A stretch of DNA of 35,372 bases, taken from NCBI GenBank assembly GCA_029821455.1, contig JALGTI010000001.1:1-35372 (forward strand), written 5' to 3'. A program made the position numbers and the translations under genes. The stretch comes from Candidatus Zipacnadia bacterium. GTDB taxonomy: Bacteria > Armatimonadota > Zipacnadia > Zipacnadales > Zipacnadaceae. Positions within the stretch are counted from its first letter, which is position 1. The number at the start of each line of letters is the position of its first letter. Below, in pieces: positions 888 to 30,629 of this stretch. The notes under the pieces are model-generated. The model was not told the DNA's origin, ran no database searches, and was given only the letters and a program-made list of their open reading frames with translations.

Positions 888-3257
888 TTAGGGTGAGGGG
901 GCGATAGTGAGGGTCACGGCCCGGGCCTGTACATCGAAGCGGAGGCGGGAGCTAGGGGCCTCGAATGTCTTCTCTTCGCGACTGCCGTCGGGCCACTGGA
1001 ATGTCACCTGATGTCGGCTGCCGGGCGTCACCTCATAATCACCATTCCTGATCGCCAGCCGCGTCTGGGTACGCTTGCCAGACGAGAGGGTAAGCCGGCC
1101 ATCGCGGCTAGTCTGCAGTCTGGTATCTGTGCCGGCTAGCTGCAGCACAATCGCGTTCTCGTCATACTGCTCGACGATAGCGGTGACCTCGCCGGCATAC
1201 GGTTGCACGAGCAGTGGAATGGCGCGAAGGGTACGCAACTCGCCGGATCCAAGCGGCACCGTCAGGCGCGCATAGCCGGTGCGCAGGCCATTATCGTAAC
1301 GGGAGCCAGCGGAGAACTTGGCAATAGCCCCCAGGTAGGCTCGGTGCTTGGCTGTGTAGCTGAGTACCTCGGCGATAGTGTCGGAGCCACTGTTATATAG
1401 CCGGAATTCATCTCCACCCAGGCCGGCGATATGGACCTGGTCAGGAAACAGGGGCGGCCCAATCAATTGATACATGGCACGGCGGGAGCACAGGTCACGA
1501 TGGAACGCGATGTAGGACGGGTCATTCACGCTCCAGTTGCTCCACAGGGGGTAGGTGGCAAAGACTGTCGCCCCCAGCCCACGGGTGCGTACTAAGATCC
1601 CAGCCCAAGCGGGGCTCCCCTCCTCATCGCGCTCCACATCCAGAACCGCCAGCGGTATGGTGTCTTCGGCGATCAATGCGTGCGCGGCGGGGCCGACTAC
1701 CGTCCACTGGCCACCGGCCACACTCGTGCCCCCGCGTTTCCCCATCTCGGTGAAGCCTTTGGTATCCATCCCCGGGCGCAGTGATGGGAACAGCGGCGGA
1801 ATGCAGTTAACCTTCAGATTCCCCACGCGATCCTTGATGCTGACAATCCCCTCCACACCACACCAGGCGCCCAGAGGGTGGGGCAGCTTGTCCCACTGGC
1901 CGGAGTTATACATCCCCGCGCCCAGGTCGCAGACAAACACTCCGCCGCGCTCGATGTAACCTTCGATAGCTGTTACGGCCTCGGGGGTAAGCTTCAGGGC
2001 TAAGGGTCCAAAGATGACCCCATACCGGTCCAGGTCCACGTCAGCCACTTCATTAAGCTGGAGTATATCCACCCCACCGAAGACGGTGCCGAGCCTGAAG
2101 GCGCCGAAGAGGTTGTTCGGCTCGCCGTCAGAGAGGCCCTGGATGAAGCCATAGGCGGGCACTTTCTCTTGCCCTGCCGCAAAGCCCTGGGCGTAGGGCT
2201 CCCAGAGGATTGCGATGGTACCAGCAGGCTCGATACCAAAGTCGGTCGGCTGCACAGCGGCGAGGGTGTCGTGCAGTTGACTGCGGACCTCCGCAGGCGA
2301 GCGGTTCTCCTCGATACGCTCGGCATCCTCGATGCCAAAGCCACAAGCACCACCCAGAGCGGCAACCCCGATCCAGCGGCCCAACGCATTCTCTGAAAAC
2401 AGCGGGCTGGGTGGAACCGGCAGGCGCAAGACGGGCAGGACCCGGAACTTGCCCATGCGGCGGCCCATGTGCAGGGCGTGCACATTGCTGGCGGTAGTGT
2501 CAGGCTCCAGGATATCCGGCGGCATCCAGACCTGGATGATGTCGTAGTCGTCGGGGATAGCACTGAGACTGCGGTAGAGGCTGATGCGCCCGGTCATCAG
2601 AGGGCGGGTAGGGTCCGCCTCCCGAATGACATCGGCCCAGAGCGCCATAAGATCGTGGAACTCCTGGCGCTGGAAGTCAGCGAAGTCAATTGAGGGCCGG
2701 CCCACCGCGAAGGGCATCTCATCATCCGCGCTCAAGGCGCCGACGATGCCTATCTGCGACCAGGTGAGGTACTCCGTCCCCCAGGCCGCGTTCAGTGTCG
2801 CCAGGTCTCGATAAATGGTCTTCAGGTATTGCTGGAAGCCAGCGGCCGAATAGCGGATGTCGCCCTCCAGGAAGTCAGAGGTCGCCCAGGCGGTGATACC
2901 CTCCTCGGAGGCCAGCTCGCCAACCGTCTCCCGTAGCAGCGTCCTGACACGATCTACGTATGACTGATCGCCCGTTGACAGGCCTAACTCGCTGTCTACG
3001 CTCGTCGGCAGGGCCACAATTGACTGCAGCCCGGCTTGGTGGGCGTTGCGGACCGCGACTTTGATGGGACCAAGTCTATCAACCTGCTCAGGATCAATGG
3101 TGAGGTAGATCGTGTTGAGGCCCAGCCAGCGCGCGTCATCGACCATCCGCGGCCCACTGAGGCCCAACAGGTAAGTGAAAAACAGGCCGTCGCTGTCAGC
3201 CGGACCGCCCGCAGCGCATAAGAGGCTTAGGAGAATGATGGCTGCGCTTCGCTTCAT
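888..3257 (-). CDS. Secreted GH42 (beta-galactosidase)-like protein with a trimerisation-like domain; activity uncertain
   Basis: Signal peptide MKRSAAIILLSLLCAAGG; GH42-like segment FQQYLKTIYRDLATLNAAWGTEY; trimerisation-domain-like DLDRYGVIFGP...IEGYIERGGVFVCD. The canonical NE acid/base motif is not evident. Confidence 0.55.
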   Translation of the reverse strand: MKRSAAIILLSLLCAAGGPADSDGLFFTYLLGLSGPRMVDDARWLGLNTIYLTIDPEQVDRLGPIKVAVRNAHQAGLQSIVALPTSVDSELGLSTGDQSYVDRVRTLLRETVGELASEEGITAWATSDFLEGDIRYSAAGFQQYLKTIYRDLATLNAAWGTEYLTWSQIGIVGALSADDEMPFAVGRPSIDFADFQRQEFHDLMALWADVIREADPTRPLMTGRISLYRSLSAIPDDYDIIQVWMPPDILEPDTTASNVHALHMGRRMGKFRVLPVLRLPVPPSPLFSENALGRWIGVAALGGACGFGIEDAERIEENRSPAEVRSQLHDTLAAVQPTDFGIEPAGTIAILWEPYAQGFAAGQEKVPAYGFIQGLSDGEPNNLFGAFRLGTVFGGVDILQLNEVADVDLDRYGVIFGPLALKLTPEAVTAIEGYIERGGVFVCDLGAGMYNSGQWDKLPHPLGAWCGVEGIVSIKDRVGNLKVNCIPPLFPSLRPGMDTKGFTEMGKRGGTSVAGGQWTVVGPAAHALIAEDTIPLAVLDVERDEEGSPAWAGILVRTRGLGATVFATYPLWSNWSVNDPSYIAFHRDLCSRRAMYQLIGPPLFPDQVHIAGLGGDEFRLYNSGSDTIAEVLSYTAKHRAYLGAIAKFSAGSRYDNGLRTGYARLTVPLGSGELRTLRAIPLLVQPYAGEVTAIVEQYDENAIVLQLAGTDTRLQTSRDGRLTLSSGKRTQTRLAIRNGDYEVTPGSRHQVTFQWPDGSREEKTFEAPSSRLRFDVQARAVTLTIAPSP

Positions 3258-3274: not shown

Positions 3275-4015
3275 CTAGATAGTGTCCGTTGAGTGGTTAT
3301 TCACAACCGTCGCCAGCCAGACCTCCTTGGTGGATAGAGCATCGCCGGCCGCGGCTTGCTGAGCTTGCTGCTTGCTGGCACCGTTGCCTTGGCCGATCAC
3401 CCGTCCTCGGAAGCGCACCTCCACCTCGAAAGTCCGATCGTGAGGTGGCCCCATCACAGCAACGGTCACATAGCGAGGAATCTGCTTGGTCTGCTTCTGC
3501 AGCAGCTCCTGGAGCACGGTCTTATGGTCGAAGACAAGCTCCTGCGCCTCGATATTTGCCAGAATATCACGAAACAGTCGCATTACCAGGGCACGGGCGG
3601 TTCGCATCCCCTTGGCCAGATACGCAGCCCCGATGACAGCTTCCACGCAATCGGCCAGCAGTGAGGTTTTCTGTCGGCCACCAGTCTCTTCCTCGCCGTG
3701 ACCCAGCAGCAAGTAGTCACCAAAGCCCCGCTGCCGGGCAACCCTGGCAAGAGTGGTCGAACGCGCCACCACCGACTTCATCCTGGTCAACTGCCCCTCG
3801 GGTAAGCCGGGAAACTTCTTGTATAGGTGCTCCGCCAAGCATAAGTCCAACACCGTGTCACCCAGGAATTCCAGGCGCTGGTTGGACTCCACGGAGGGCA
3901 AGCCCTGTTCGCGCACCCACGAGGTATGACAGAACGCCTGCCGCAACAGGTCAAGATCCATCTTGGGCAGGCGTAGTTGTTCGGCAAGTGCCCTGAAGCG
4001 CTTCTTGTCCTGCAC
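3275..4015 (-). CDS. rnc: Ribonuclease III
   Basis: Signature NQRLEFLGD, ADCVEAVIGA, and a C-terminal dsRBD (DHKTVLQE...GPPHDRTF...G.GASKQQAQQAAA). Confidence 0.96.
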   Translation of the reverse strand: MQDKKRFRALAEQLRLPKMDLDLLRQAFCHTSWVREQGLPSVESNQRLEFLGDTVLDLCLAEHLYKKFPGLPEGQLTRMKSVVARSTTLARVARQRGFGDYLLLGHGEEETGGRQKTSLLADCVEAVIGAAYLAKGMRTARALVMRLFRDILANIEAQELVFDHKTVLQELLQKQTKQIPRYVTVAVMGPPHDRTFEVEVRFRGRVIGQGNGASKQQAQQAAAGDALSTKEVWLATVVNNHSTDTI

Positions 4016-4183: not shown

Positions 4184-5410
4184 CTAGACAGCCCCAATGA
4201 TCAGCACCGCATTGTGTCCCCCAAAGCCGAACGAATTGGACATAGCGTACTTGACCGTTGCCTGGCGCGGCTTGTCTCGCACGATGTCAATGACTATGCC
4301 GTCGTCCGGGTTGTCGCAGTTGAGGGTGTGGGGGATTATTCCCTCTTGAATGGCTTTGATGCAGGCCAGCAGCTCAGAAGCCCCAGTCGCCCCGAGCTGA
4401 TGGCCGTGAATCGGTTTGGTTGACGAAACAGGTACGCTGTCACCGAACAACTCACCGATGGCGGTAGCCTCCATCTCGTCGCCGCCTGGGGTGCCAGGTG
4501 CGTGGGCATTAATGTAATCAATATCATCGGCTGCCAGGCCGGCGTCCCGCAGGGCCGCTTGCATCGCCATCCTAGCGCCACGTCCCTCGGGGTCGGGAGC
4601 TGTGATGTGATAGGCGTCTGCGGTCATGCCGTATCCCAGTATTTCCGCCAATATGGTGGCACCGCGCGCCCGGGCCCACTCCAGTTCCTCAAGGATCATA
4701 ACGGTGGCCCCTTCACCCATCACGAAGCCATCGCGGTCGCGGTCAAAGGGCCGGCAGGACCGTTCAGGCTCATCATTGCGCCGGGAGATAGCGCGGGCAG
4801 CAGCAAAGCCGGCCACGGCGAGCGGGGTGAGAGCCGCTTCAGCCCCACCGGCGACCATTACCTTGGCCGCTCCCCGGCGGATGATCTCAAAGGAATCACC
4901 GATGGCGTGAGCAGCCGTGGCGCAGGCTGTGGCGACCGTCGAGTTGGGCCCTTTGGCACCAGTCTCGATTGATACCATTCCCGATCCCATATTGACAATC
5001 ATCATCGGGACAAAGAATGGAGAGACACGCGAAGGGCCCCGCTCAAGCAGCGCCTGGTGCTGCTTCTCCCAGGTCCACATTCCCCCGATCCCCGAGCCAA
5101 TAAGCACACCGATATCATCGGCATTGTCCTCCATGACCGTCAGGTCCGCATCCCCCAGGGCCATTTTCGCGGCGGCGATGGCGAACTGGGTGAACCTGTC
5201 GCAACGTTTGACGATCTTGGCATCCATCCACCGGGTAGGTTCGAAGTCTCGGACCTCAGCAGCAATCCGCGTGGCGTGCTCTGACGCATCAAACTGCGTG
5301 ATGGGGCCAATCCCAGAGTGCCCCTTGCAGCAGGCCCGCCACAGGTCTTCAACGCTGTAGCCCAGGGGCGAGATGATACCGATTCCGGTGACAACGACGC
5401 GCCTGTTCAT
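4184..5410 (-). CDS. fabF: Beta-ketoacyl-ACP synthase II
   Basis: RRVVVTGIG, catalytic TAC, His in INAH and HGH, RPFDRDRDGFVMGEG, SNSFGFGGHNA; follows acpP. Confidence 0.96.
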   Translation of the reverse strand: MNRRVVVTGIGIISPLGYSVEDLWRACCKGHSGIGPITQFDASEHATRIAAEVRDFEPTRWMDAKIVKRCDRFTQFAIAAAKMALGDADLTVMEDNADDIGVLIGSGIGGMWTWEKQHQALLERGPSRVSPFFVPMMIVNMGSGMVSIETGAKGPNSTVATACATAAHAIGDSFEIIRRGAAKVMVAGGAEAALTPLAVAGFAAARAISRRNDEPERSCRPFDRDRDGFVMGEGATVMILEELEWARARGATILAEILGYGMTADAYHITAPDPEGRGARMAMQAALRDAGLAADDIDYINAHAPGTPGGDEMEATAIGELFGDSVPVSSTKPIHGHQLGATGASELLACIKAIQEGIIPHTLNCDNPDDGIVIDIVRDKPRQATVKYAMSNSFGFGGHNAVLIIGAV

Positions 5411-5521: not shown

Positions 5522-5761
5522 CTAGCTACTGACACCCTTCTGCTCCAGATAGCGCACGGTATCGCCCACAGTCCGAATCTGCTCGGCTTCCTCTTCGGGA
5601 ATCTCGATGGCAAACTCCTCTTCAAGGGCCATGACCAGTTCGACGACGTCCAATGAGTCGGCCTTCAGATCGCCCTCAAAGGTAGCGCTCTCTGTGACCT
5701 CGCTTTCAGGTACCGACAGTTCCCTCACGATAACTTCCTTGACTTTTTCAAACAATGCCAC
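5522..5761 (-). CDS. acpP: Acyl carrier protein
   Basis: 79 aa acidic protein with the phosphopantetheine motif [17 protein letters not shown]. Confidence 0.97.
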
Positions 5762-5808: not shown

Positions 5809-6549
5809 TTACATTAGCATGCCACCATCTATGCTAATGACTTGCCCAGTTATGTAGCTGGCCTCCGGGTGGGCCAGGAACGCCACTACGCCAGCCACGT
5901 CCTCTGCTGTGCCAGCTCGCCCGAGCGGTATCAGGCTCAGCCAGCCTTCACGCACCGCCTCAGAAAGCTGCTCAGTCATAGGAGTCTCGATGAAGCCTGG
6001 GGCAACAGCGTTGCAGTTAACGCCCCTTCCGGCCAGTTCCTTGGCGGTGGTCTTGGTCAGGGCAATCAGGCCGCCCTTGGAGGCAGCGTAGTTGGCCTGG
6101 CCGGGGTTGCCCATCACCCCCGCTACGGAGGCGATGTTGATAATGCGACCATAGCGCGCTTTCATCATCGGTTTGGCCACGGCGCGCGTGCAGATGAAGG
6201 CACCCTTGAGGTTGACATCCAACACCGCATCCCACTGCTCATCCTTCATTCTGACCAGCAGGCCGTCGCGGGTAATGCCGGCATTGTTGACCAGAATGTC
6301 AATCCGTCCCCATTTATCCAGCGCCTCGCTGACCATTGCCTCAACCTGCTCAGGATCAGTCACGGAGGCGACGGATACCAGGGCCTCGCGCCCCAACTCC
6401 TCAACCTCGGCGGCCACAGCATTCGCGGCCTCTTCCAGGATATCATTGACCACTATACTGGCACCGTGCTGGGCGAGCTCCAAGGCGATAGTGCGCCCGA
6501 TGCCGCCGCCGGAGCCGGTAATGATCGCAATCTGGTCCTGGAGCTTCAA
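5809..6549 (-). CDS. fabG: 3-oxoacyl-ACP reductase
   Basis: TGSGGGIG, NNAGITRD, GNPGQANYAASK (YxxxK). TTG start at 6549 follows a GGAGGG SD. Confidence 0.96.
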   Translation of the reverse strand: MKLQDQIAIITGSGGGIGRTIALELAQHGASIVVNDILEEAANAVAAEVEELGREALVSVASVTDPEQVEAMVSEALDKWGRIDILVNNAGITRDGLLVRMKDEQWDAVLDVNLKGAFICTRAVAKPMMKARYGRIINIASVAGVMGNPGQANYAASKGGLIALTKTTAKELAGRGVNCNAVAPGFIETPMTEQLSEAVREGWLSLIPLGRAGTAEDVAGVVAFLAHPEASYITGQVISIDGGMLM

Positions 6550-6565
6550 TTCTTCCCTCCGCTCC

Positions 6566-7495
6566 CTAGTTGATGAGACGGTCAATGGTCACTAGCAGTG
6601 TTTCGGCGTCACAGGCGCTGTGGACCGCCACGCTGCCATCAATCTTGCTCATCATCCGCGCCAGTACCTGCCCAGGTCCCACCTCGACGAAAACGTCAGC
6701 GCCCATCTTGATCATCGTACGCACCGAGGCCTCCCAACGCACCTGGTTCGTAATCTGCTGGATCAGGGCCTGACGGATGCCGTCAGCATCAGTGCGGGCA
6801 GTTGCGTCCACATTCGACACCAGCGGGATGCGGGCATCGGTGAAGTTGGCCTGTTCCAGCAGCGGACGCATCTGCTCGGCGGCTGGCTCCATAAGTCGCG
6901 AATGGAAGGCGCCAGAGACCTTGAGTGGGATCACGCGCTTGGCCCCCGCTTCCTTCGCCAACTCTGAGGCCCTCGCCACCGCCTCTGCCTCACCCGAGAT
7001 GACCGTCTGCACAGGAGTATTGTAATTCGCCACTACGCAGACACCTTCCTGCATGGCTTGGGCAACCGCTGCCTCCACCTCGTTGGGGGGCAGGCCAATG
7101 ATGGCGGCCATCACACCCCCAGCCTTCTCGCCTGCATCGGCCATCGCCACGCCGCGCTGCCATATCAGCATAATGGCCTCTTCGACCTCGAGTGCACCGG
7201 CGGCGACAGCCGCAGAGTACTCCCCGACGCTGTGGCCAGCGACGATCTGTGGCTCTACGCCGCGCTCGGAGAGCACCTGAAGTGTCGCGATGCTCTGTGC
7301 CAGTATGGCAGGCTGGGCATAGCGGGTGTCCTGGAGACCCTCCTGCAGACCGTCGAACATCAGCCCAGTGAGCGGGAAGCCCAGTGACTTATTTACCAGG
7401 CTGAATAGCCGCCGAACGGTTGGATACTCTCCATACAGGTCTGTGCCCATACCGACGAATTGTGAACCCTGGCCTGGAAAGATGAAAGCTATCAC
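6566..7495 (-). CDS. fabD: Malonyl-CoA:ACP transacylase
   Basis: FPGQGSQ, catalytic GHSVG, VSGAFHS, VEVGPG. Confidence 0.97.
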   Translation of the reverse strand: MIAFIFPGQGSQFVGMGTDLYGEYPTVRRLFSLVNKSLGFPLTGLMFDGLQEGLQDTRYAQPAILAQSIATLQVLSERGVEPQIVAGHSVGEYSAAVAAGALEVEEAIMLIWQRGVAMADAGEKAGGVMAAIIGLPPNEVEAAVAQAMQEGVCVVANYNTPVQTVISGEAEAVARASELAKEAGAKRVIPLKVSGAFHSRLMEPAAEQMRPLLEQANFTDARIPLVSNVDATARTDADGIRQALIQQITNQVRWEASVRTMIKMGADVFVEVGPGQVLARMMSKIDGSVAVHSACDAETLLVTIDRLIN

Positions 7496-7550: not shown

Positions 7551-8750
7551 CTATTGGTGCCCGAACTCGTTCTTTAGCGCAGCGGTCAAGGCTGGCACAA
7601 CTTCGAAAAGGTCGCCCACGATGCCATAGGTAGCCACGTCAAAGATAGGCGCATCGGGATCGCTATTGATGGCGACAATGCAGTCGGAAGAGGACATGCC
7701 GGCTAGATGCTGGACGGCTCCGCTGATGCCGCAGGCAATGTACAGCTTAGGCTGGACAGTCTTGCCGGTTTGCCCGACCTGATGATAAGCCGGTATCCAC
7801 CCGGCGTCCACGGTGGCACGCGATGCGCCGACCGCTCCGCCCAGCACCCCCGCCAGTTCCCTTATCATCGCAAAGTTCTCCGGAGCCCGTAGGCCACGCC
7901 CGCCAGAAACAATGATCTCCGCATCTTGCAGGTTGACCTGCTCTGCGCCCTCCTCGCGGATGACCTCAACGATCTTAGTTAGGATTGCCTTTTCGTTGAG
8001 GCTCACCTGTTTGCGGATGACTTCGGCCTGGCGGCCTTCCTGCAGCGCGGGCTTCTTCATTACTCTGGGCCGCACAGTTGCCATCTGGGGCCGCGCCTGC
8101 CGGCACAGAATGCTCGCCATAATATTGCCGCCGAAGGCTGGGCGCGTCTGCAGCAGCAATCGCTCGGCCGGGTCAATCTCTAGCCCCGTGCAATCGGCGG
8201 TCAGGCCGGCTCCGATGCGGGCGGCAATGCGCGAGGCGAGGTCACGGCCCATTGAGGTGGCCCCAATCAAGACAATCTCGGGCTTATGCTTGTTGATGAG
8301 ACCGGTCATCACATCCACGAATGGCCCGGTGCGGTAGTGTTTGAGGGCCTCGTCCTCCACCAAGTAAACCTTGTCAGCACCATACGCGGCGGCTGCGGGG
8401 ACTAGCGGCTCGACCTCGTGGCCAACCAACAATAAGGCCAGCTCCTCGTCCAGCGCCTCGGCCAACTTGCGGCCCTCACCCAGCAGTTCGACAGTCACCT
8501 CAGCGAACTTGCCATCGTGGGTCTCGGCGATGACCCAGACGCCCTGGTACTCGCTTGTGTCAACAGCCTCCTTCTTTGGCCGCGCCTGGATGATGGCTTC
8601 GAACTTGCAGAAGCTGACGCAGGCCCCGCACATCACGCAATCCTCGGTGAAGCGGGCCTTGCCGTCCTCGATGATTATCGCGCCATAGGGGCACGCGTTC
8701 AGGCAAAGCTTGCAGCCAGTACATTTGTCAGTATCAATGTAGATAGACAT
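7551..8750 (-). CDS. etfA: Electron transfer flavoprotein alpha subunit with an N-terminal 2x[4Fe-4S] ferredoxin domain
   Basis: [12 protein letters not shown] and [11 protein letters not shown] cluster motifs; [42 protein letters not shown]. Confidence 0.95.
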
Positions 8751-8771
8751 ACTTCGCAGTTGTGGAGAGGT

Positions 8772-9554
8772 CTAAAGGACCTTGGCCTCCCGTAGTCTCT
8801 GGATCAGAGTATGGACAACTTCTGAGCACTCGCCCTCCAGCCGTTCCCCCTCCCGGCCACGCTCTGGCGTGAAGATCCGGACGACGTTAGTTGGTGAGCC
8901 ATCCAGGCCACAGCGCGCGGTGTCAGCCTGGATGTCCTCAGCGGTCCAGGTGGGAATCTCAGCCTTGCGCGCCTTCATCACGCCCTTGAGGCCGGCGTGG
9001 CGTGGCTCGTTCATCTGCTTGACACAGGTTATCAAAGCCGGCAGCCGGGTCTCGACCACTTCAAACCGATCCTCCAGCAGCCGCTTGACCCGCAGTCCTT
9101 TGTCCTCTATCTCCGCTTCGATGGCATAGGTCACCTGCGGAATGCCGAGTTGCTCCGCCAGGCCGGGGCCGACCTGGGCGGTGTCGCCATCGAAGGCCTG
9201 CTTGCCGCATAGTATCAGGTCATAGTCGCCAATCCTTCTGATAGCTTGGGCCAGCGTATAACTGGTGGCCAGTGTGTCGGAGCCTGCAAAGGCACGGTCG
9301 CTGATTAGGATCGCTTCATCGGCACCCATTGCGACGGCCTCACGCAGAGCCTTCTCGGCCTGCGGTGGCCCCATCGTGATGACCATTACCTTCCCGCCGT
9401 GCTTTTCCTTAAGCTGCAAGGCAGCCTCGATGGCATTCTCATCAAACGGGTTGATGATGCTGGGCACGCCCTCCCGTACCAGGGTGTTGGTCTCGGGGTC
9501 AATGCGCACCTCGGTGGTATCAGGAACCTGTTTTATGCAGACGATGAAGTTCAT
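8772..9554 (-). CDS. etfB: Electron transfer flavoprotein beta subunit
   Basis: VCIKQVPDT, INPFDENA, FAGSDTLAT, CGKQAFDGDTAQVGP, GLDGSPT. Confidence 0.96.
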   Translation of the reverse strand: MNFIVCIKQVPDTTEVRIDPETNTLVREGVPSIINPFDENAIEAALQLKEKHGGKVMVITMGPPQAEKALREAVAMGADEAILISDRAFAGSDTLATSYTLAQAIRRIGDYDLILCGKQAFDGDTAQVGPGLAEQLGIPQVTYAIEAEIEDKGLRVKRLLEDRFEVVETRLPALITCVKQMNEPRHAGLKGVMKARKAEIPTWTAEDIQADTARCGLDGSPTNVVRIFTPERGREGERLEGECSEVVHTLIQRLREAKVL

Positions 9555-9593
9555 TGGGTGGTCTCATATCCTGACGGTAGGGTAAGCTTCTCC

Positions 9594-9625
9594 TTCGGCT
9601 AGCTCAGGACGGTGAGCTTGCCGAA
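9594..9625. repeat. Imperfect palindrome between the dehydrogenase gene and etfB
   Basis: ttcggc-t-agctca-GGACGG-tgagct-t-gccgaa: 12 paired bases with one mismatch. Confidence 0.5.
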
Positions 9626-9654
9626 CCGTCGAACCCGCAGCTTGCCCTAGCCCT

Positions 9655-9678
9655 GTGCAGGCAGGATGCCTGCGCTAC
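9655..9678 (-). repeat. GTAG-type REP-like palindrome overlapping the dehydrogenase stop codon
   Basis: The minus strand reads GTAG-C-GCAGGCA-TCC-TGCCTGC-AC; the TAG stop is part of GTAG. Confidence 0.55.
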
Positions 9679-10826
9679 CGCAACTTGGCTTCCTTCAGGA
9701 GCCGGTTGGCGATAACTAGCCGCTGGATTTCGCTGGTGCCCTCGACTATCTCAAAGAGCTTCGCTTCGCGGAAGTAACGCTCCACTGCGTATTCCTTAGT
9801 ATAGCCGTAGCCGCCGTGGATCTGCACCGCCTCGTTGCAGACCCTTGAGCAGGCCTCGGATGCAAACACCTTGGCCATCGCCGCCTGCTTCTCAAAGTCC
9901 AGGCCCTCGTCCTTGCGCCAGGCGGCCTGGTAAGTAAGCAGACGGGAGCACTCAATATCCGTGGCCATATCGGCGAGCTTGAACTGGATGGCCTGGAACC
10001 CGCTAATGGGCTGGTCGAACTGCACTCGAGTCTGGGCGTATGCCACTGCAGCATCGTAGGCTGCCTGGGCCAGTCCGACAGCTCCGACGGCCATACCGAT
10101 GCGGCCAACGGCCAAGGTCTGCATCGTCACCCGGAAGCCACCCTTCTCCTTGTGCAGGATGTTCGCGGCTGGCACGCGGCAGTCGGTAAAGATTAGTTCG
10201 CGGTTGGACAGACTCTTGAAGGCCATCTTCTGCTCATCCTTGCCGAAGTCGAAGCCGGGCGTGCCCTTCTCCACGATGAAAGCGGTCAGGCCGCGCATCC
10301 CTCGGCTGGGGTCCGCATTGGCGATGATGACGTATAGTTCGGCATCGCCACCGTTGCTGATGAAGAGCTTGGAGCCATTGAGGATGTACTCATCGCCATC
10401 GCGCTCGGCTCGGGTTTGGACGTTGCCGGCGTCAGAGCCAGCGTCAGGCTCCGTCAGTCCAAATGCCCCGATCTTCTCACCAGTGGCCAGTGGGGCGAGG
10501 AACTTCTGCTTCTGCTCGTCGGTGCCAAAGTGCATAATGGGGTATTCGGCCAGCATATGAGCGCCATAGATAGCGCCGGTAGTAGTGCAGGCACCCGACA
10601 GCAGCTCACCGATCACCGCCCACTCCAGGAAGCCCAAGCCCATCCCGCCGTATTCTTCAGGGGCGGGGATGCCCATCAGGTCCAGCTTGCCGAGCTGGCG
10701 CACATTGTCCCAGGGATACTCGCCAGCCTCGTCAACCTCCTGCGCCCGGGGCTTGAGCACGTCGTCGCAGAACTCGCGGACGGCTGCGAATATCTCCTGT
10801 TGCTCTTCGGTAAAGGCGAAATCCAT
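9675..10826 (-). CDS. Acyl-CoA dehydrogenase family flavoprotein (Bcd/CarC-like), 383 aa
   Basis: GAFGLTEPDAGSD, LNGSKLFISNG, R.QFDQPI..FQAIQFKLADM, AVQIHGGYGY, catalytic Glu in EIVEGTSEIQR. ATG at 10826 follows an AAGGGAGG SD. Confidence 0.95.
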   Translation of the reverse strand: MDFAFTEEQQEIFAAVREFCDDVLKPRAQEVDEAGEYPWDNVRQLGKLDLMGIPAPEEYGGMGLGFLEWAVIGELLSGACTTTGAIYGAHMLAEYPIMHFGTDEQKQKFLAPLATGEKIGAFGLTEPDAGSDAGNVQTRAERDGDEYILNGSKLFISNGGDAELYVIIANADPSRGMRGLTAFIVEKGTPGFDFGKDEQKMAFKSLSNRELIFTDCRVPAANILHKEKGGFRVTMQTLAVGRIGMAVGAVGLAQAAYDAAVAYAQTRVQFDQPISGFQAIQFKLADMATDIECSRLLTYQAAWRKDEGLDFEKQAAMAKVFASEACSRVCNEAVQIHGGYGYTKEYAVERYFREAKLFEIVEGTSEIQRLVIANRLLKEAKLR

Positions 10827-10875: not shown

Positions 10876-11889
10876 TTAGTCTTCGGCAGTGTAGGGGACC
10901 TTATCCCACCGCACCACAGCCGCCCCCAGCGTGAACCCCGCGCCAAATCCGACCAGCAAGACCAGGTCGCCGGGCGCCATATGCCCCTCGCGGTAGACCT
11001 CATCCAGGGCGATGGGAATGGAGGCGGCAGACGTGTTGCCGTAGCGGTCCACATTGACAACCACGCGCTCGTCCGGGACGCCTAGGCGCTTGGCGGCTGC
11101 ATCGAGAATGCGTTTATTGGCCTGGTGCATTACGACCCAGGCGATATCTTTGGCCTCAACACCAGCCTTTTCCATCGCAGTTTCGCCAACCTCGGGCACC
11201 CCACGTACCGCCAGCTTGTAGAGCTCGTGGCCTTCCATCCGGATGCAGTTTTCGTGCTGCGCCAGCAGTTCGGGAGTCAGTGGCTGGCGGGTGCCCCCCG
11301 CTGGCAGCTTCAGGAGGTCTCCGTGCTGGCCATAGGATTCCAGGACATAGGACAGCACCCCGGTGCCTGGCTCAGCCAGCCCCACAACAGCCGCGCCCGC
11401 GCCATCCCCGAACAGCACACAGGTGGAGCGGTCGGTCCAGTCGGTGATGCGTGTGAGTACTTCGCCGCTGATAACTAGTACGTAATCACAAGCCCCGTTT
11501 GATATCATTCCGTCTGCCAGTCCGATGCCATATATGAAGCCAGTGCAGCCGCTCACGAGATCAAAGGCGCCTGCATTTCTGGCCCCAATGCGATCCTGGA
11601 CAAGGCAGCCGGTGGCTGGAAAGGTCATATCCGGGGTGACGGTGCTGACGATCACCATATCAAGTTGCTCAGGCGAGACACCGGCATCGGCCAGGGCGCG
11701 CTCGGCAGCCGGGACGCACAGATCCGAGCAGGCCTGGTCATCAGTGGCTATCCGGCGCTCTCGAATACCGGTGTGGGTAACTATCCACTCATCGGTGGTA
11801 TCAACAATCCTCTCCAAGTCGGCATTGGAGAGGACCTTATCGGGGACGTATGAGCCCATCCCCCATATCTTCGAGCCTCGTTGCTGCAT
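10876..11889 (-). CDS. fabH: Beta-ketoacyl-ACP synthase III
   Basis: DTTDEWI..HTGIRERR; Cys-His-Asn triad (SGCTGF, HQANKRI, GNTSAAS); LFGDGAGA. Confidence 0.96.
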   Translation of the reverse strand: MQQRGSKIWGMGSYVPDKVLSNADLERIVDTTDEWIVTHTGIRERRIATDDQACSDLCVPAAERALADAGVSPEQLDMVIVSTVTPDMTFPATGCLVQDRIGARNAGAFDLVSGCTGFIYGIGLADGMISNGACDYVLVISGEVLTRITDWTDRSTCVLFGDGAGAAVVGLAEPGTGVLSYVLESYGQHGDLLKLPAGGTRQPLTPELLAQHENCIRMEGHELYKLAVRGVPEVGETAMEKAGVEAKDIAWVVMHQANKRILDAAAKRLGVPDERVVVNVDRYGNTSAASIPIALDEVYREGHMAPGDLVLLVGFGAGFTLGAAVVRWDKVPYTAED

Positions 11890-11930: not shown

Positions 11931-12941
11931 CTACTGTGCCAATTCCCTATCCTGGAGTTGTTCCACGACAGCGGCCAGGTGTTCAATCACGCGGCCCTCG
12001 ACGGCCCGCTGCGCCACCTGGATGGCGCTTTCAATGGCTCTGGCATCAGATCGTCCGTGGCTCACCACACAGATGCCATTCACACCCATCAGCAGGGCCC
12101 CGCCGTAAGTTGAATAATCAAAGAACTCCCCCAAATGCTTGAGCGGGCGCCGCATCAATAGTGCGCCCAGTTTTGCCATAAGGCTGCGCGCGATCTGGCC
12201 CCGCAGCTCGGTCAGCACGAAGTGGGCCATCCCTTCGCCAACCTTGAGGGCCACATTGCCAGCGAAGCCATCAGCCACTACCACATCAATCTCCCCGGAG
12301 AACAGGTCGTCACCCTCGACGTTACCGATGAAATTGACCGGCGCCTTACTCAGCAATCTGTGAGCGGCCAGGATAAGTTCGCTACCCTTGCCCTGCTCTT
12401 CCCCGATGCTCAGGAGGCCGACCTTGGGTTGCTTGACGCCCAGCGCGCGCTCACAATAGATGCTGGCCATGACACCGAACTGGGCGAGATGGATGGGCTT
12501 ACAGTCAGCATTGGCTCCGGCGTCAATCAGCACCCAGGCGCCTCGGTGACCGGGCAGCACTGCGCCGATGGCGGGGCGGTGGATGCCTGTCACCGGTGGC
12601 AAAGATAAGTGAGCGAGGGTCAGGAAGGCACCGCTGTTGCCGGCCGATACCACCGCCGAAGCCTCACGGTCACGAACCATTTGGATGGCGACGGCCAGCG
12701 AGGAATCGCGCTTGGTACGCAGTGCTGCGGTGGGGCTCTCACCCATCTCTATGACCTGGGAGGCCGGCCGGATTGTGACATTGGCAGGCAGACCGCCATG
12801 TTCGGCGACGACAGCGTCCAGGGCGTCCGGTTTGCCGACCAGCGCGATGTGAAGGTCAGTCCGGGCCGTGCAACTCAATGCGCCCTTGACTACCTCGTCA
12901 GGCGCATAGTCCCCTCCCATTGCGTCAACAGCTATCAACAT
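11931..12941 (-). CDS. plsX: Phosphate acyltransferase PlsX
   Basis: IAVDAMGGDYAP, SAGNSGA, DAGANAD, GNVEG.D, DGFAGNVALK, SHGRS. Confidence 0.97.
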   Translation of the reverse strand: MLIAVDAMGGDYAPDEVVKGALSCTARTDLHIALVGKPDALDAVVAEHGGLPANVTIRPASQVIEMGESPTAALRTKRDSSLAVAIQMVRDREASAVVSAGNSGAFLTLAHLSLPPVTGIHRPAIGAVLPGHRGAWVLIDAGANADCKPIHLAQFGVMASIYCERALGVKQPKVGLLSIGEEQGKGSELILAAHRLLSKAPVNFIGNVEGDDLFSGEIDVVVADGFAGNVALKVGEGMAHFVLTELRGQIARSLMAKLGALLMRRPLKHLGEFFDYSTYGGALLMGVNGICVVSHGRSDARAIESAIQVAQRAVEGRVIEHLAAVVEQLQDRELAQ

Positions 12942-13225: not shown

Positions 13226-13726
13226 TTACTGGCCTGTTAGCTGCTTGAGGGGCATAAGGCGCGGGTCTATGTCATCTTGTTTGCAGTTGCATTTACCACG
13301 ATTGAGATCCGCACCGCAATGCGGACATAACCCCTTGCAGTCCGGGGCACATAGCACCCGCAACGGTGTATGCAATCCAAGCATCTGGCGCACCAGCTCA
13401 CTGAGGTCCACCGTCGCCTCATCTAGTAAAGGTATCTGGTCGCCAGCCGGCGGCTGGGGACTGTCTATCTGAGCCAGGGCGCACTCTTCGTTGACCTCAA
13501 TATCCAGCGGTACCTCGACCGGCTGCAAGCAGCGGCTGCATTCCATCCGCATGACAGTTTTGAGGTAGCCATGCGCGTTGATGCTACTGCCAGTATTGGT
13601 GAGGGCAATCCGCCCGCACACTGGCCCCACCAGGGGCCATTCAAGCCCCTCGGGCCCCTCATCATCCAGGTCGCAGACGGCCCGTCCCCCAACCTGGTTC
13701 AGTGTGCCGAACAGTTCATACCGCAT
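13226..13726 (-). CDS. yceD: YceD/DUF177 family protein
   Basis: CSRCL, LCAPDCKGLCPHCGADLN..KCNC, DPRL; canonical position upstream of rpmF. An alternative GTG start lies at 13756. Confidence 0.9.
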   Translation of the reverse strand: MRYELFGTLNQVGGRAVCDLDDEGPEGLEWPLVGPVCGRIALTNTGSSINAHGYLKTVMRMECSRCLQPVEVPLDIEVNEECALAQIDSPQPPAGDQIPLLDEATVDLSELVRQMLGLHTPLRVLCAPDCKGLCPHCGADLNRGKCNCKQDDIDPRLMPLKQLTGQ

Positions 13727-13779
13727 AATGACACCGCGGCCTTCCGGCCGCGGCACCTTAGGCCCTCAAGGTGCGCAGA

Positions 13780-13809
13780 AGTATACTCAATCAGACGCGC
13801 CCTTGTCAA
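13780..13809 (-). promoter_or_regulatory. Sigma70-type promoter for the yceD-rpmF-plsX-fab cluster
   Basis: Minus strand TTGACA (13809-13804), 18-nt spacer, TATACT (13785-13780), directly upstream of yceD. Confidence 0.75.
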
Positions 13810-13854: not shown

Positions 13855-15741
13855 CTAGCCCGCTGGCCACGGGATGGTCAGCAGCGGCGAGCTCCACGGC
13901 CCAGCCGCGTCAGCCGCTTCCCCGTTGATAGTGCGACTGAGAACCTTATTGGCCCGCATATCCTCCACCAGCTCCATCGCGAGGTCATCGGCCGTGTATT
14001 TGATGGTGTGGACGAGCAGATGCTGATATACCAGGTCGGACTTGGACTTGGGCTTCCACTCCGTCAGCATCGGCGGCTTATCCGTAGCCTCTTCTTCGCG
14101 CAGCCGCTTTTTCTGATACTGGACGGTTTGGACAATGCGGGCGCGAGTGAGCGCCCGCGAGAACTTCTCCAGCGACTCGAAAGCCTCCAGGGGTGCAATG
14201 CGCACCATGAAGCCGGCTCGCATATTGTCCAGCGGCCGCCGCACCAGCGAGGTCTCCTTCCGGGCATAGATGCGCAGGGCGAGCTCAGCCTGGTCCCCCT
14301 CACCGATCCAGCCCAGCGTAGCCGGCTTCGGCCCCTCGCGCACATGCTTTGGCTGGGCGGCTCCACAATGCAGGGGCCGCACACCCAGATAGCAGTCCCG
14401 GGTCTGGACAGCCAGGCTGCTCATCTCCTCAACCCCGACTTCGTAGCCAGGCCACTCTTCACCGAACAGGAGCACCCGCTCAATCTGGTTCCTGGGACCC
14501 AGGATACCTTCCAGCCAGGCTTGCCGCCGGCCCCTGACCCCAAGCAGGTCGAAATCGGCGCTGACGACAGCCACGGAGCCGTGCTGGATGCTGGTGACGT
14601 GTGCGGGGCCGCCATGCAGGTAGAAGTAGCTGGTAGGCCGCCGGCCGCCGGCGCTGTAGGTCACCAGTCCCAGTATCGAATCATCTCCGATTTGGCCTGA
14701 TAACGTGCCCAGGGTGAAGTGGGGGTTGATGAATGTGTCCGTGCGGGTGACGCCGTCAGGCTTCTGGCAAGCGGTCGTGATGGTAGTCGGAAGTGGCGGC
14801 CGGGATACAGAGAACTGCGGGGCAGGAGGCGCGAGCAGGTAAACCGCGAACGGCTCAATGCCCGTCGGTTCCGGCCCGCCCAGGTCATAGTGGATGAGGT
14901 ATCTGGCCACCGAGCTTCCGCTTGCGTAGTCACCAGGGAAGGCGGCAGTCATAGCACCGCCTAGATATGAACCTGAGGCATCCACGCGCTGGACAAAGTC
15001 CAGCCACAGCAACTCATAGGCGCGTTCCAGTCCTGTCCCGCCAGCCCACTGCACCCACCGCACAGCCGCGACCTTCAGTGCATCATAGGTCGGGTTATGG
15101 CCCTCCGGCACACCATTGTGGCGGGCCTCCCGCCCCCAGTTGGAGGTCAGGCCAGCCTCTCGTCTGACTAGCTCCGTGTCATCGAGGGCGCGGCCAATAG
15201 CTGACAGGGCCGCTGCACGCAGCAACCGCGTTGTGCTGTCCTCGTCCTGCGTCCCACGTCGCTGCAGCGCGCCCTTGCATAGCCCGAGAGCCGCCAGCAA
15301 CTTCCCATTTAGCTCCTCACCGAGGACAGCCTCGCCATACGTGATCGTGACGTAGGCCAACAGCGGAGCAACGTAGAGAACCGCGTCAGGCTGATAATCA
15401 GCCTCCGGATTTCCCCGCCAGCGGAAGGTCCCCTGTGTCCCAGAGCCTGGTTCCACATCCTGATTCGCCAACACTGCCTCCAGCACGCCGCGCGCCATTT
15501 CCTGGTCGCCATCATTGCCAGCCAGAGCAGCAGCTACGAATCCGATGCTGCTGTCCACCAGGTTGGGGTCGCCGTATCTATCCTTGATGAGACTCGTGCC
15601 CTCATCCAGATTAGCCCGGCCATAGGCCACCACCACTTCTACCAGAGCGGGCCGGGTTTCTATCAGAGAGTATTGCGCCCATGCTGCAGTGCACATTAGC
15701 AGCAGGACCAAAGCAGATCCAATGCATCGCCCTCTTGCCAT
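13855..15741 (-). CDS. Secreted hypothetical protein (628 aa)
   Basis: Long ORF with a GAGGGGGAG SD; signal peptide MARGRCIGSALVLLLMCTAAWA; helical-looking N-half and beta-rich C-half. Confidence 0.75.
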   Translation of the reverse strand: MARGRCIGSALVLLLMCTAAWAQYSLIETRPALVEVVVAYGRANLDEGTSLIKDRYGDPNLVDSSIGFVAAALAGNDGDQEMARGVLEAVLANQDVEPGSGTQGTFRWRGNPEADYQPDAVLYVAPLLAYVTITYGEAVLGEELNGKLLAALGLCKGALQRRGTQDEDSTTRLLRAAALSAIGRALDDTELVRREAGLTSNWGREARHNGVPEGHNPTYDALKVAAVRWVQWAGGTGLERAYELLWLDFVQRVDASGSYLGGAMTAAFPGDYASGSSVARYLIHYDLGGPEPTGIEPFAVYLLAPPAPQFSVSRPPLPTTITTACQKPDGVTRTDTFINPHFTLGTLSGQIGDDSILGLVTYSAGGRRPTSYFYLHGGPAHVTSIQHGSVAVVSADFDLLGVRGRRQAWLEGILGPRNQIERVLLFGEEWPGYEVGVEEMSSLAVQTRDCYLGVRPLHCGAAQPKHVREGPKPATLGWIGEGDQAELALRIYARKETSLVRRPLDNMRAGFMVRIAPLEAFESLEKFSRALTRARIVQTVQYQKKRLREEEATDKPPMLTEWKPKSKSDLVYQHLLVHTIKYTADDLAMELVEDMRANKVLSRTINGEAADAAGPWSSPLLTIPWPAG

Positions 15742-15829
15742 AAGATACAAGCTCCCCTCAGTTGGCGGTGTCGGCTTGCGGCGCGTTTGGCCTCGGTTGC
15801 TGTGTTGGTTATGTTGTAGGACAGGCAAT

Positions 15830-15857
15830 TCAGCCGCCGGTTGCAACCGGCGGCTGA
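15830..15857. repeat. Perfect 28-bp palindrome downstream of rpsI (terminator-like or REP-like)
   Basis: TCAGCCGCCGGTTG|CAACCGGCGGCTGA is its own reverse complement. Confidence 0.7.
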
Positions 15858-27157: not shown

Positions 27158-27526
27158 CTAGACGACCTCCGGGGCCAGCGAGATGATCTTCATATACTGT
27201 TTCACTCGCAGTTCACGCGCCACAGGCCCGAATACACGGGTACAGCGCGGGTTCTTAGTCTCATCCACGATTACAACCGCGTTGTCATCAAACCGCACCT
27301 GAGTGCCATCAGGCCGCACTACAGGCTGACTGCAGCGCACCACCACTGCCCGCAGCAGCTCGCCCTTAGAAATCGGGCTGGAAGGGGCAACTTGCTTGGC
27401 AGAGCAGACAATCTCGTCCCCCAGTGACGCATAGCGGCTGGCACCGCGCCCCATCACCCGAATGCAGCCGACTTCCTGAACCCCTGAGTTGTCGGTTACC
27501 TTAAGGCGTGTCTGCATCTGTATCAT
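27158..27526 (-). CDS. rplN: 50S ribosomal protein uL14
   Basis: MIQMQTRL.V.DNSG, RFDDNAVVI, TRVFGPVARELR, KIISLAPEV. Confidence 0.97.
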   Translation of the reverse strand: MIQMQTRLKVTDNSGVQEVGCIRVMGRGASRYASLGDEIVCSAKQVAPSSPISKGELLRAVVVRCSQPVVRPDGTQVRFDDNAVVIVDETKNPRCTRVFGPVARELRVKQYMKIISLAPEVV

Positions 27527-29983: not shown

Positions 29984-30214
29984 TTATCGCTGGCTAATGC
30001 TCAGCTCGCGCTCACGCAAGATAGTGTTAATCCGCGCGATAGCCTTGCGATACTTGCGGACGCGCTTGGGATCCTCAATCTGACCCGAGGCCAGGCGGAA
30101 GCGCAGATTGAATAGACTCTCCGTTATGTGTCGGCGGCGGTCGCGCAGCTCTGCGTCAGTGGAGTCGCGCAGTTGCTCGATGAACTGCCGCGTCGTGTCG
30201 CAGCTATCAGGCAT
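29984..30214 (-). CDS. rpmC: 50S ribosomal protein uL29
   Basis: [31 protein letters not shown]; lies between rplP and rpsQ. Confidence 0.95.
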
Positions 30215-30629
30215 ATCCCTCGTCCTCCCGCGTCACAAACTTCGTCCTAATCGGGAGCTTGTGGGCGGCCAGCCGCATCGCATCCCTGGCCACATCATCA
30301 GGCACACCGGCCATTTCAAACATTATGCGACCGGGCTTGACGACGGCCACATAATGGGCGACAGCACCCTTTCCCTTGCCCATCCGCGTCTCAGCCGGCG
30401 TCTCTGTGACTGGCTTGTCGGGGAAGACTCGGATCCAGATCTTGCCGCCGCGATGGGCGCGGCGCGTCATCGCCACACGCGCCGCCTCAATCTGCCGTGA
30501 GGTCAGCCAACAGGGCTCCAGAGCCTGCAGCCCATATTCGCCCACTGTCAAAGCGTTACCGCGGCTAGCCGTGCCCTTCATGCGGCCGCGATGCTGCTTG
30601 CGGTACTTCGTGCGTTTGGGCATCAACAT
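30207..30629 (-). CDS. rplP: 50S ribosomal protein uL16
   Basis: [47 protein letters not shown]. Confidence 0.98.

Follow-up and report, generated by a model that had tools for sequence, protein, structure and literature searches.

Which enzyme reduces the enoyl thioester in each round of fatty acid elongation by the bacterium that carries this locus? The enoyl-acyl carrier protein (ACP) reductase step is the most variable one in bacterial fatty acid synthesis, being carried out by the unrelated or distantly related families FabI, FabL, FabK and FabV, and it is also a major antibiotic target. The stretch of DNA analysed here (the window, 35,372 nt in full) is contig C246 of a metagenome-assembled genome (MAG) of the phylum Armatimonadota (the source genome G000; 3.68 Mb in 518 contigs, 87% complete, 3.3% contamination). 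On its minus strand it carries the order yceD-rpmF-plsX-fabH-ACAD-etfB-(ferredoxin)etfA-fabD-fabG-acpP-fabF-rnc, in which an acyl-CoA dehydrogenase (ACAD) family flavoprotein and the two subunits of an electron transfer flavoprotein (Etf) stand between fabH and fabD. We propose that this trio is an NADH-dependent, probably ferredoxin-coupled, enoyl-ACP reductase, performing the step done elsewhere by the four known families, and we put the chance of this being correct at about even (roughly 0.5). A first-pass annotation of the same DNA had placed the trio in a Firmicutes frame, which is wrong since the organism is an Armatimonadota MAG; its operon logic still carries over.

The gene order was established from the open reading frames (ORFs) together with Pfam and NCBIfam matches, and it agrees with the co-orientation and coordinates that had been claimed for the cluster. 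All 13 features, a promoter-like site included, lie on the minus strand from 13809 down to 3275 (Table 1), and each fab gene scores above the curated cut-off of its equivalog or subfamily model. The trio is tightly embedded, the short gaps already noted on either side of it being confirmed (49 bp for fabH-ACAD and 55 bp for etfA-fabD, with 120 bp for ACAD-etfB and 21 bp for etfB-etfA inside it), and no convincing minus-strand terminator was found inside the cluster. The promoter-like site placed upstream of yceD is indeed the best of the three such sites found, but their number is not above chance (shuffle mean 3.6). The phosphopantetheine site of AcpP (D35-S36-L37-D38) shows no variation across 18 orthologues. 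A Candidatus Zipacnadia bacterium MAG record has the same gene order with an 87%-identical ACAD, and in a second Armatimonadota MAG, with a 72%-identical ACAD, the cluster order is likewise unchanged.

A Pfam/NCBIfam scan found no enoyl reductase, thiolase, crotonase or hbd gene within the window, and profile searches of the whole source genome, in keeping with the first-pass proposal, returned no FabI, FabK, FabL or FabV. The FabK model TIGR03151 gave no match there (control positive in 13 of 14 genomes), the best NMO domain reaching just 35 bits, and the best score on the FabI model NF005717 was 73.5 bits, versus 292.6 bits for E. coli FabI on that model. FabV was likewise not found in the source genome with NF010177, a model validated by a 580-bit match in another Armatimonadota genome (G084); the Pfam model PF12241 also gave no match, but its control was silent everywhere and it was replaced by NF010177. 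The best FabL score (202 bits) came from a short-chain dehydrogenase/reductase (SDR) on contig C375, which was rejected as a FabL because it scores 326 bits on the FabG model, above the cut-off; it could conceivably be a novel SDR-type reductase. The only FabA/FabZ-domain gene found in the source genome is a fabZ that adjoins lpxA.

The same picture extends to most of the order, sampled here as 41 genomes (the source genome and 40 relatives, all MAGs, from 7 families and 20 genera). In 36 of the 41, searches for FabI, FabK and FabV came back empty; FabK above the cut-off and FabV were found in none, and FabL-like proteins at 1e-66 in none of the 17 order genomes that are also present in our phylum sample. 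The NMO-like proteins that G006 and G020 encode (144–172 bits) and the PKS ER domain of G033 fall below the 453-bit FabK cut-off and were rejected. FabI-like proteins of about 270–292 bits occur in five genomes, all of family f5 (three of them among the 24 order genomes that are at least 90% complete), and the FabI models were the best match for the two that were scanned. The other 21 order genomes of at least 90% completeness, from six families, all have FabH, FabD, FabG, FabF and ACP and none of FabI, FabK, FabL and FabV.

The trio, by comparison, is conserved throughout the order. An ACAD match at E ⩽ 1e-60 is present in 37 of the 41 genomes, 36 of them at 63–87% identity and one (G018) at 46%. 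The four that lack one are 68–89% complete, and each of the 24 that reach 90% completeness has one (in a single case at just 46% identity). Among 29 related loci, fabH lies immediately upstream of the ACAD gene in 27, one exception being truncated by a contig end and the other having 767 bp upstream with no FabH match, and etfB lies downstream in 27, both exceptions being truncated by contig ends. The synteny predicted for fabH-ACAD-etfB-etfA-fabD is fully kept in the longer loci, since the whole yceD-to-rnc order is retained, to the contig limits, in 20 out of 20 (families f1, f2, f4, f5, f6 and f7), of which 17 extend to rnc, and the median gaps in related loci (66 bp for fabH-ACAD, 42 bp for etfA-fabD) are similarly short. 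The placement of the trio in the fab cluster is not a matter of chance.

Lineage-specific genes are tolerated within the trio, including a MenG/UbiE methyltransferase, a DUF4268 protein and an acidic low-complexity ORF. The MenG/UbiE gene (TIGR01934, 176.8 bits, above cut-off) separates ACAD from etfB in two genera of the source family, g2 and g3 (L017:735-1463, and also L018, L024 and L028), and further class-I SAM methyltransferases occupy the etfB-etfA interval of L188, the position after etfA in L046 and the acpP-fabF interval of L045; the family f5 loci have an acpP-fabF gap similar to the one that holds the methyltransferase in L045. Insertions confined to single lineages comprise a HEPN protein (L046:3999-4376), a UvrD-like helicase (L141:9440-11503), the DUF4268 protein (L029:2667-3596) and 3.6 kb between fabD and fabG (L166:9325-12971). 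A relative of the same genus carries two tandem acpP genes (L044:13041-13570, L159:10400-10929), 57% and 88% identical to the window ACP, where the window has one.

The Etf subunits, as judged from their sequence matches, are of the electron-bifurcating CarDE/Bcd-Etf type, and the ferredoxin domain that the first-pass annotation had recognised on EtfA proved CarE-like in PDB searches. EtfA aligns over its full length, from residue 1, with CarE (6FAH_A, 420 bits) and scores 290–420 bits against five bifurcating chains (6FAH, 5OL2, 7KOE, 4KPU and 7QH2), the alpha subunits of the Bcd, EtfABCX, A. fermentans and Lct Etf proteins spanning 290–337 bits with Bcd-EtfA at 337 bits; full-length non-bifurcating Etf chains reach only 147–170 bits and the 217-residue fragment 3IH5_A 129 bits. 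Similarly, EtfB scores 228–286 bits against bifurcating chains (CarD 286, Bcd-Etf 262) versus 113–114 bits against the non-bifurcating chains 2A1T_S, 1EFP_B and 1EFV_B. The N-terminus of EtfA contains two CxxCxxCxxxC motifs (Pfam Fer4, 52 bits in two stretches), and EtfB contains the stretch GKQAFDGDTAQVGP, a putative bifurcating-Etf motif that may indicate a second FAD and an NADH site in place of AMP. A second pair of EtfB and ferredoxin-domain EtfA (Fd-EtfA) is encoded on contig C514 (L136:823-4749). It was considered as a partner for the trio ACAD and rejected, because its own FixC and FixX lie alongside and mark it as a separate EtfABCX system; beside these genes is also a 1406-aa BcrAD_BadFG+DUF2229 activase-like protein.

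The ACAD is the only copy in the source genome (tblastn, 1e-5) and has all three domains of its family (PF02771 124 bits, PF02770 87 bits, PF00441 183 bits). Its best NCBIfam model is NF042972 (AcrC; 454.9 bits, below the cut-off of 640) and its best PDB match is the C. difficile Bcd (5OL2_C, 412 bits). The catalytic Glu (E362, within IVEGTSEIQ) is matched in the alignment by the Glu of IYEGT in all five of the solved homologues and is invariant in 21 orthologues. In a tree of 86 sequences (IQ-TREE quick search; 90 of 176 sequences were omitted, keeping all those of at least 61% identity, six Armatimonadota paralogues, the first 22 classical Bcd sequences and 24 random others), the trio ACADs form a clade of 34 members (SH-aLRT 100, stem 0.5) that stands apart from the classical Bcd-EtfBA clade (24 sequences) and also from the ACAD clade of families f14, f26, f27 and f29. 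It comprises 25 fabH-linked and two rnc-linked ACADs together with unlinked orthologues, namely four from stand-alone Fd-EtfA trios, one on a cut contig with etfB only and two ACADs without an adjacent etf gene.

This clade also carries an active-site signature of its own. Altogether 21 alignment positions distinguish its 32 distinct members from 30 classical Bcd sequences, among them T to N208, Q to G248, T to F358, Y to V361 (directly before E362) and a one-residue deletion after H90. N208, G248 and V361 are present in 100% of the 32 members, as opposed to T, Q and Y in the 30 classical Bcd sequences; the five best solved homologues all have Thr and Tyr at the positions of N208 and V361, and the Gln and Thr of classical Bcd/SCAD enzymes correspond to Gly248 and Phe358 here. 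Going by known ACAD structures, the signature positions would touch the flavin N5 and the acyl pocket, the replaced residues of classical Bcd/SCAD presumably being the Thr near the flavin, the Gln in helix G and the Tyr before the catalytic Glu, and the smaller residues found here would suit longer acyl chains. G248 and the loop length agree with the medium-chain Thermus enzyme 1UKW and differ from the short-chain enzymes. The signature is common to linked and unlinked trios and is missing from the 45%-identity ACAD clade. Net charge was also considered as a sign of ACP binding (mean −14.4 in the trio clade versus −1.3 in classical Bcd) and was rejected as uninformative, because FabH, FabD, FabG and FabF of the operon and the proteome median are equally acidic.

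We have also checked the distribution of the trio and of the known reductases across the phylum, using 201 Armatimonadota genomes that are all at least 85% complete. ACAD matches are bimodal, with 27 genomes at 64% identity or above, 30 at 40–49% and 144 without a match at 1e-80; besides the source order, only families f8 and f9, which belong to its class, and f31 and f42, which do not, have orthologues of at least 64% identity, and FabH adjoins the ACAD in the source order only. FabI at 1e-45 is present in 136 genomes, FabV in one (G084) and FabL-like proteins in seven, while NMO-like proteins of 234–241 bits in four of nine f26 genomes were left unclassified. True FabK (512–519 bits) is restricted to family f25 (5/5), where it sits next to fabH and ahead of fabD; the trio thus occupies the very fabH/fabD slot that is held by fabK in another family of the same phylum. 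By a hand tally of the search tables, which treats related genomes as though they were independent, a recognised reductase is missing from 56 genomes, and an ACAD is present in 44 of these (in 22 of the 44, one of the trio clade), whereas only 13 of the 145 genomes with a recognised reductase have one. The anti-correlation that had been foreseen is strong, but it is not strict, since FabI accompanies the linked trio in f5 and a FabL-like protein the unlinked trio in f8.

Further linkages were found outside these samples. Metagenome contigs L183 and L186 show the fabH linkage again, and contigs L187 and L188 have the order fabD-fabG-acpP-fabF-rnc-ACAD-etfB-methyltransferase-etfA, with an ACAD that is 61% identical and belongs to the same clade. 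This is a second, different fab-cluster junction for the trio ACAD clade. The etfA of L187 and L188 has no ferredoxin domain and is followed by a PALP enzyme. The 33 classical Bcd-EtfBA loci in the set have ACADs at most 53% identical to that of the window, no ferredoxin domain and no fab genes. In G044 (f14), a 45%-identical ACAD is also part of a trio with Fd-EtfA, and G183 (f28) has a true beta-oxidation cluster, consisting of crotonase, ACAD, etfB, an etfA without ferredoxin domain, an Fe-S oxidoreductase and an acyl-CoA ligase.

Taken together, the most economical account is a non-orthologous displacement of the reductase by a Bcd/CarCDE-like complex, for which we see the same even odds as stated at the outset. 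The same chemistry is involved, a 2,3-enoyl thioester being reduced in both cases, the slot is that of fabK, most of the order has no other recognisable reductase, the usual partner of an ACAD is missing and the trio ACADs have diverged as a clade. Searches for crotonase (ECH_1) drew a blank in all 41 order genomes at 1e-15 and in the source genome at 1e-3 (control positive in 11 of 14 genomes), so that the standard link from Hbd to Bcd is missing. The idea of a FabK displacement, as put forward in the first-pass annotation, is strengthened by the f25 slot and by the 36 of 41 genomes without a known reductase, but weakened by the single origin of the linkage and by the unlinked trios in sister lineages, as discussed below. 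That the substrate is an ACP rather than a CoA ester, in which direction the reaction runs and that it is coupled to ferredoxin are inferences on our part. The fuller version, in which ACP esters and ferredoxin coupling both hold and a Bcd/CarCDE-like enoyl-ACP reductase serving the type II pathway of fatty acid synthesis (FAS-II) spends 2 NADH per cycle and passes a low-potential electron pair to ferredoxin, is less likely than the plain reductase reading, at well under even odds. In such a cycle, the FAD of EtfB would be reduced by NADH; one electron path would lead through the EtfA FAD to the ACAD FAD, on which trans-2-enoyl-ACP supplied by FabZ would be converted into acyl-ACP with Glu362 as the acid/base; and ferredoxin would receive the second, low-potential electron by way of the two [4Fe-4S] clusters in EtfA's ferredoxin domain, as happens in CarCDE and Bcd-EtfAB.

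The trio resembles several characterized systems without being identical to any of them. With the clostridial Bcd/EtfAB complexes (C. difficile 5OL2; A. fermentans 4KPU and 4L1F) it shares the three proteins, the gene order ACAD-etfB-etfA and the catalytic Glu of the xEGT motif; the ACAD finds its best PDB match there, and both Etf subunits match strongly. However, the window ACAD is only about 50% identical and falls in a separate clade with different active-site residues, and the classical Bcd loci have an EtfA without ferredoxin domain and no fab neighbours. The source genome here has no crotonase. CarCDE of Acetobacterium woodii (6FAH) is matched more closely by the Etf, as EtfA is full-length to CarE including the N-terminal 2x[4Fe-4S] domain and EtfB is closest to CarD; the ACAD, however, is nearer to Bcd (412 bits) than to CarC (304 bits), and the context is FAS-II rather than caffeate respiration. 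FabK, the FMN-dependent enoyl-ACP reductase II, has the same operon slot (in f25), is also a flavoprotein and catalyses the reaction proposed here, but it is an NMO family protein without homology to the trio, which matches neither TIGR03151 nor PF03060 and consists of three subunits with FAD, Fe-S clusters and ferredoxin as a possible second acceptor. The trio proteins match no FabI/FabL (SDR), FabK (NMO) or FabV model; our claim is one of the same function and not of membership.

For the use of carrier-protein thioesters by the ACAD fold there are precedents in the prolyl-carrier-protein dehydrogenases AnaB, RedW and PigA and in MbtN. Unlike the proposed reductase, these oxidise their substrates and serve secondary metabolism, and the window ACAD scores lower against them (partial NCBIfam scores of 273 bits for RedW, 261 for PigA and 55 for MbtN versus 455 for AcrC; 232 bits for AnaB versus 412 for Bcd). 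The nearest precedent for an Fe-S flavoenzyme that acts on acyl-ACP is FabX of Helicobacter pylori, which the portion of its description covered here presents as a flavin and [4Fe-4S] enzyme working on the C2-C3 bond of acyl-ACP in FAS-II, and as an FMN protein of the FabK/NMO type that is a dehydrogenase/isomerase with oxygen as acceptor (PMC8626469). In contrast to FabX, the trio proteins are of the ACAD/Etf type and the direction is likely reductive.

Several observations weigh against the trio being the enoyl-ACP reductase, and many of them fit an ordinary Bcd/Car-type enoyl-CoA reductase, acting on crotonyl-CoA or another 2-enoyl-CoA in fermentation or redox balance and yielding reduced ferredoxin, that entered the fab operon once and stayed, the true enoyl-ACP reductase then belonging to an unrecognised family. 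The best solved relatives of the ACAD are the CoA-dependent Bcd, SCAD and CarC, the Bcd/SCAD enzymes scoring 412–345 bits as against 232 bits for the carrier-protein enzyme AnaB. The fabH-linked ACADs are monophyletic with support 100 and the linkage is one change on the tree, meaning that its conservation represents a single inherited event. Elsewhere an orthologous trio lies among unrelated genes, with no beta-oxidation partner beside it (G090 of f8, G124 of f9 and G159 of f31), and in G151 (f42) the orthologous ACAD has no adjacent etfB/etfA match, the Fd-EtfA matches being on other contigs. Known reductases coexist with the trio or its ACAD in family f5 (FabI alongside the linked trio, 5/5), in G116 (FabI together with the orthologous ACAD) and in family f8 (a FabL-like protein of 259–285 bits with an unlinked trio, 2/2). 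Twelve of the 56 genomes without a recognised reductase also lack an ACAD, and family f32 (4/4) has neither ACAD nor Fd-EtfA, the three checked scoring at most 85–96 bits on the FabI model; an unrecognised enoyl reductase probably exists somewhere in the phylum, and it could serve here too. The source genome is moreover not free of CoA-ester genes, contrary to the window-only view of the first-pass annotation, as contig C375 (L135:685-5990) encodes a thiolase, Hbd, a FabG/PhaB-like SDR, a PIN-domain protein and a fused CoA transferase together; the absence of a beta-oxidation partner stands for the window and for crotonase, but not for thiolase and hbd. The co-occurrence figures may also be confounded, since Fd-EtfA is found in 58 of the 201 genomes, in the same, probably anaerobic, families as the ACAD, with FabI in the others, which suggests that the association may reflect a split between anaerobes and aerobes. 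Against a CoA-specific enzyme, no crotonase was found in the 41 genomes and no second ACAD is present, leaving no standard enoyl-CoA route visible, although the search did not extend to hydratases of the MaoC type or to dehydratases of 2-hydroxyacyl-CoA or 4-hydroxybutyryl-CoA, and a non-standard route is possible; the 33 classical Bcd-EtfBA loci have no fab genes and belong to another clade, the rnc-linked arrangement in L187 and L188 is a second and independent fab linkage, and the active-site signature is unlike that of every classical Bcd compared. We regard the enoyl-CoA reductase as the main alternative, albeit a less likely one.

Three other explanations fare less well. An oxidative role, in which the ACAD would be an acyl-ACP dehydrogenase/isomerase comparable to FabX and would make unsaturated or modified fatty acids without O2, the Etf electrons perhaps passing to menaquinone, is in line with the fact that ACADs are by nature dehydrogenases, with the MenG/UbiE methyltransferase gene between ACAD and etfB in g2 and g3, and with the single FabA/FabZ-domain gene, which means that no FabA or FabM route is visible; the flavin/[4Fe-4S] acyl-ACP dehydrogenase of H. 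pylori is its precedent in FAS-II, going by the portion of that report covered here (PMC8626469). It would, however, leave 36 of the 41 genomes without a reductase. The Etf is of the NADH-dependent bifurcating type, the cluster has no Etf:quinone oxidoreductase (FixCX accompanies the second Etf, on C514), and the reduction of NAD+ by oxidation of an acyl thioester is thermodynamically uphill, making this role improbable. A supply of short acyl-CoA primers such as butyryl-CoA for the FabH encoded just upstream would account for the position beside fabH, and a thiolase and Hbd are in the genome and the ACAD is Bcd-like; but a crotonase that would connect Hbd with the ACAD is missing from all 41 genomes, the reductase step stays unfilled, G248 and the loop length are like those of the medium-chain enzyme 1UKW rather than of a C4-specific enzyme, and the rnc-linked variant is not beside fabH, so that primer synthesis appears slightly more improbable still. 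Finally, a normal FabI or FabK could have escaped assembly in the MAGs (the source genome is 87% complete and in 518 contigs, and all the compared genomes are MAGs as well), or the trio itself could be a binning or assembly artefact. Both are very improbable, given the 21 order genomes of at least 90% completeness without FabI, FabK or FabV and the trio lying between fab genes on one contig in every one of 20 independent assemblies.

The literature yielded neither an ACAD/Etf enoyl-ACP reductase nor a mention of this gene order, in a search that did not cover subscription journals and supplementary files. The main text of a 2022 review of bacterial enoyl reductases does not contain 'acyl-CoA dehydrogenase', 'electron transfer flavoprotein', 'ferredoxin' or 'bifurcation' (PMC9260719), and the main text of the paper naming Zipacnadia makes no mention of ACAD, Etf, butyrate or fatty acids. 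Should the trio be the reductase, bacteria would have a fifth class of enoyl-ACP reductase, unrelated to the others and derived from a catabolic module for energy conservation; with ferredoxin coupling, it would also be the first flavin-based electron-bifurcating enzyme in an anabolic core pathway. Bifurcation would then be wired into biosynthesis, each elongation round of membrane-lipid synthesis returning energy to an anaerobe at the thermodynamic limit, and lipid synthesis would be accounted for in 22 of the 56 Armatimonadota genomes without a recognisable reductase. If it is not, an undiscovered reductase is still indicated by these 56 of 201 genomes, and the conserved operon calls for some other explanation.

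Table 1. Features of the fab cluster in the window, in the direction of transcription.
Feature	Position	Strand	Remarks
Promoter-like site, TTGACA-18-TATACT	13780..13809	-	upstream of yceD; 11/12 consensus positions; best of 3 sites
yceD (DUF177), first cluster gene	13226..13756	-	Pfam YceD 97.5 bits; position kept in related loci
rpmF, ribosomal protein L32	12976..13188	-	TIGR01031 77.7 bits
plsX, phosphate acyltransferase	11931..12941	-	TIGR00182 358.8 bits, above cut-off
fabH, beta-ketoacyl-ACP synthase III	10876..11889	-	TIGR00747 400.9 bits, above cut-off
ACAD-family flavoprotein P0001, candidate catalytic enoyl-thioester reductase subunit	9675..10826	-	383 aa, ATG at 10826; three ACAD domains
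etfB, small Etf subunit, predicted bifurcating type	8772..9554	-	Pfam ETF
etfA, large Etf subunit with N-terminal 2x[4Fe-4S] ferredoxin domain (residues ~3-55)	7551..8750	-	Pfam Fer4, ETF, ETF_alpha
fabD, malonyl-CoA:ACP transacylase	6566..7495	-	TIGR00128 316.9 bits
fabG, 3-oxoacyl-ACP reductase	5809..6585	-	TIGR01830 340.6 bits
acpP, acyl carrier protein	5522..5761	-	TIGR00517 103.8 bits; DSLD phosphopantetheine site
fabF, beta-ketoacyl-ACP synthase II	4184..5410	-	TIGR03150 597 bits
rnc, RNase III, last gene of the conserved block	3275..4015	-	TIGR02191 226.6 bits

The rest of the window contains a TonB-receptor fragment, a weak GH42-like gene, one gene without Pfam match and a superoperon of ribosomal protein genes, secY and rpoA. 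Two of these ORFs, both on the minus strand, flank the cluster: 13855-15846 (663 aa), which has zero Pfam or NCBIfam matches, and 888-3257 (789 aa), with a single weak GH42 match of 29 bits. Among the sequencing runs, only four DNA runs (0.05–0.11 of words) and no RNA run were found to share words with the stretch. Within the ribosomal protein operon, an EF-G-like gene with all five EF-G domains (27552-29636, minus strand, 694 aa) is placed between rplN (27158-27526) and rplP (30207-30629), which is an unusual location.

Elsewhere in the source genome, the genes on C375 form an acetoacetyl-/3-hydroxybutyryl-CoA module that has no crotonase or ACAD, and contig C341 (L137:2863-7595) holds a second small lipid-like cluster, comprising a lipoyl/E3-binding protein, a FabG-like SDR above the FabG cut-off, a DUF3160 protein and a beta-ketoacyl synthase truncated by the contig end. 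Outside the trio clade, 34 Armatimonadota genomes are without a recognisable FabI, FabK, FabL or FabV (families f32, f26, f29, f14 and f27; for example loci L148, L149, L139 and L156). The two f32 genomes looked at have a plain fabH-fabD cluster, with an aminotransferase gene between fabF and rnc.

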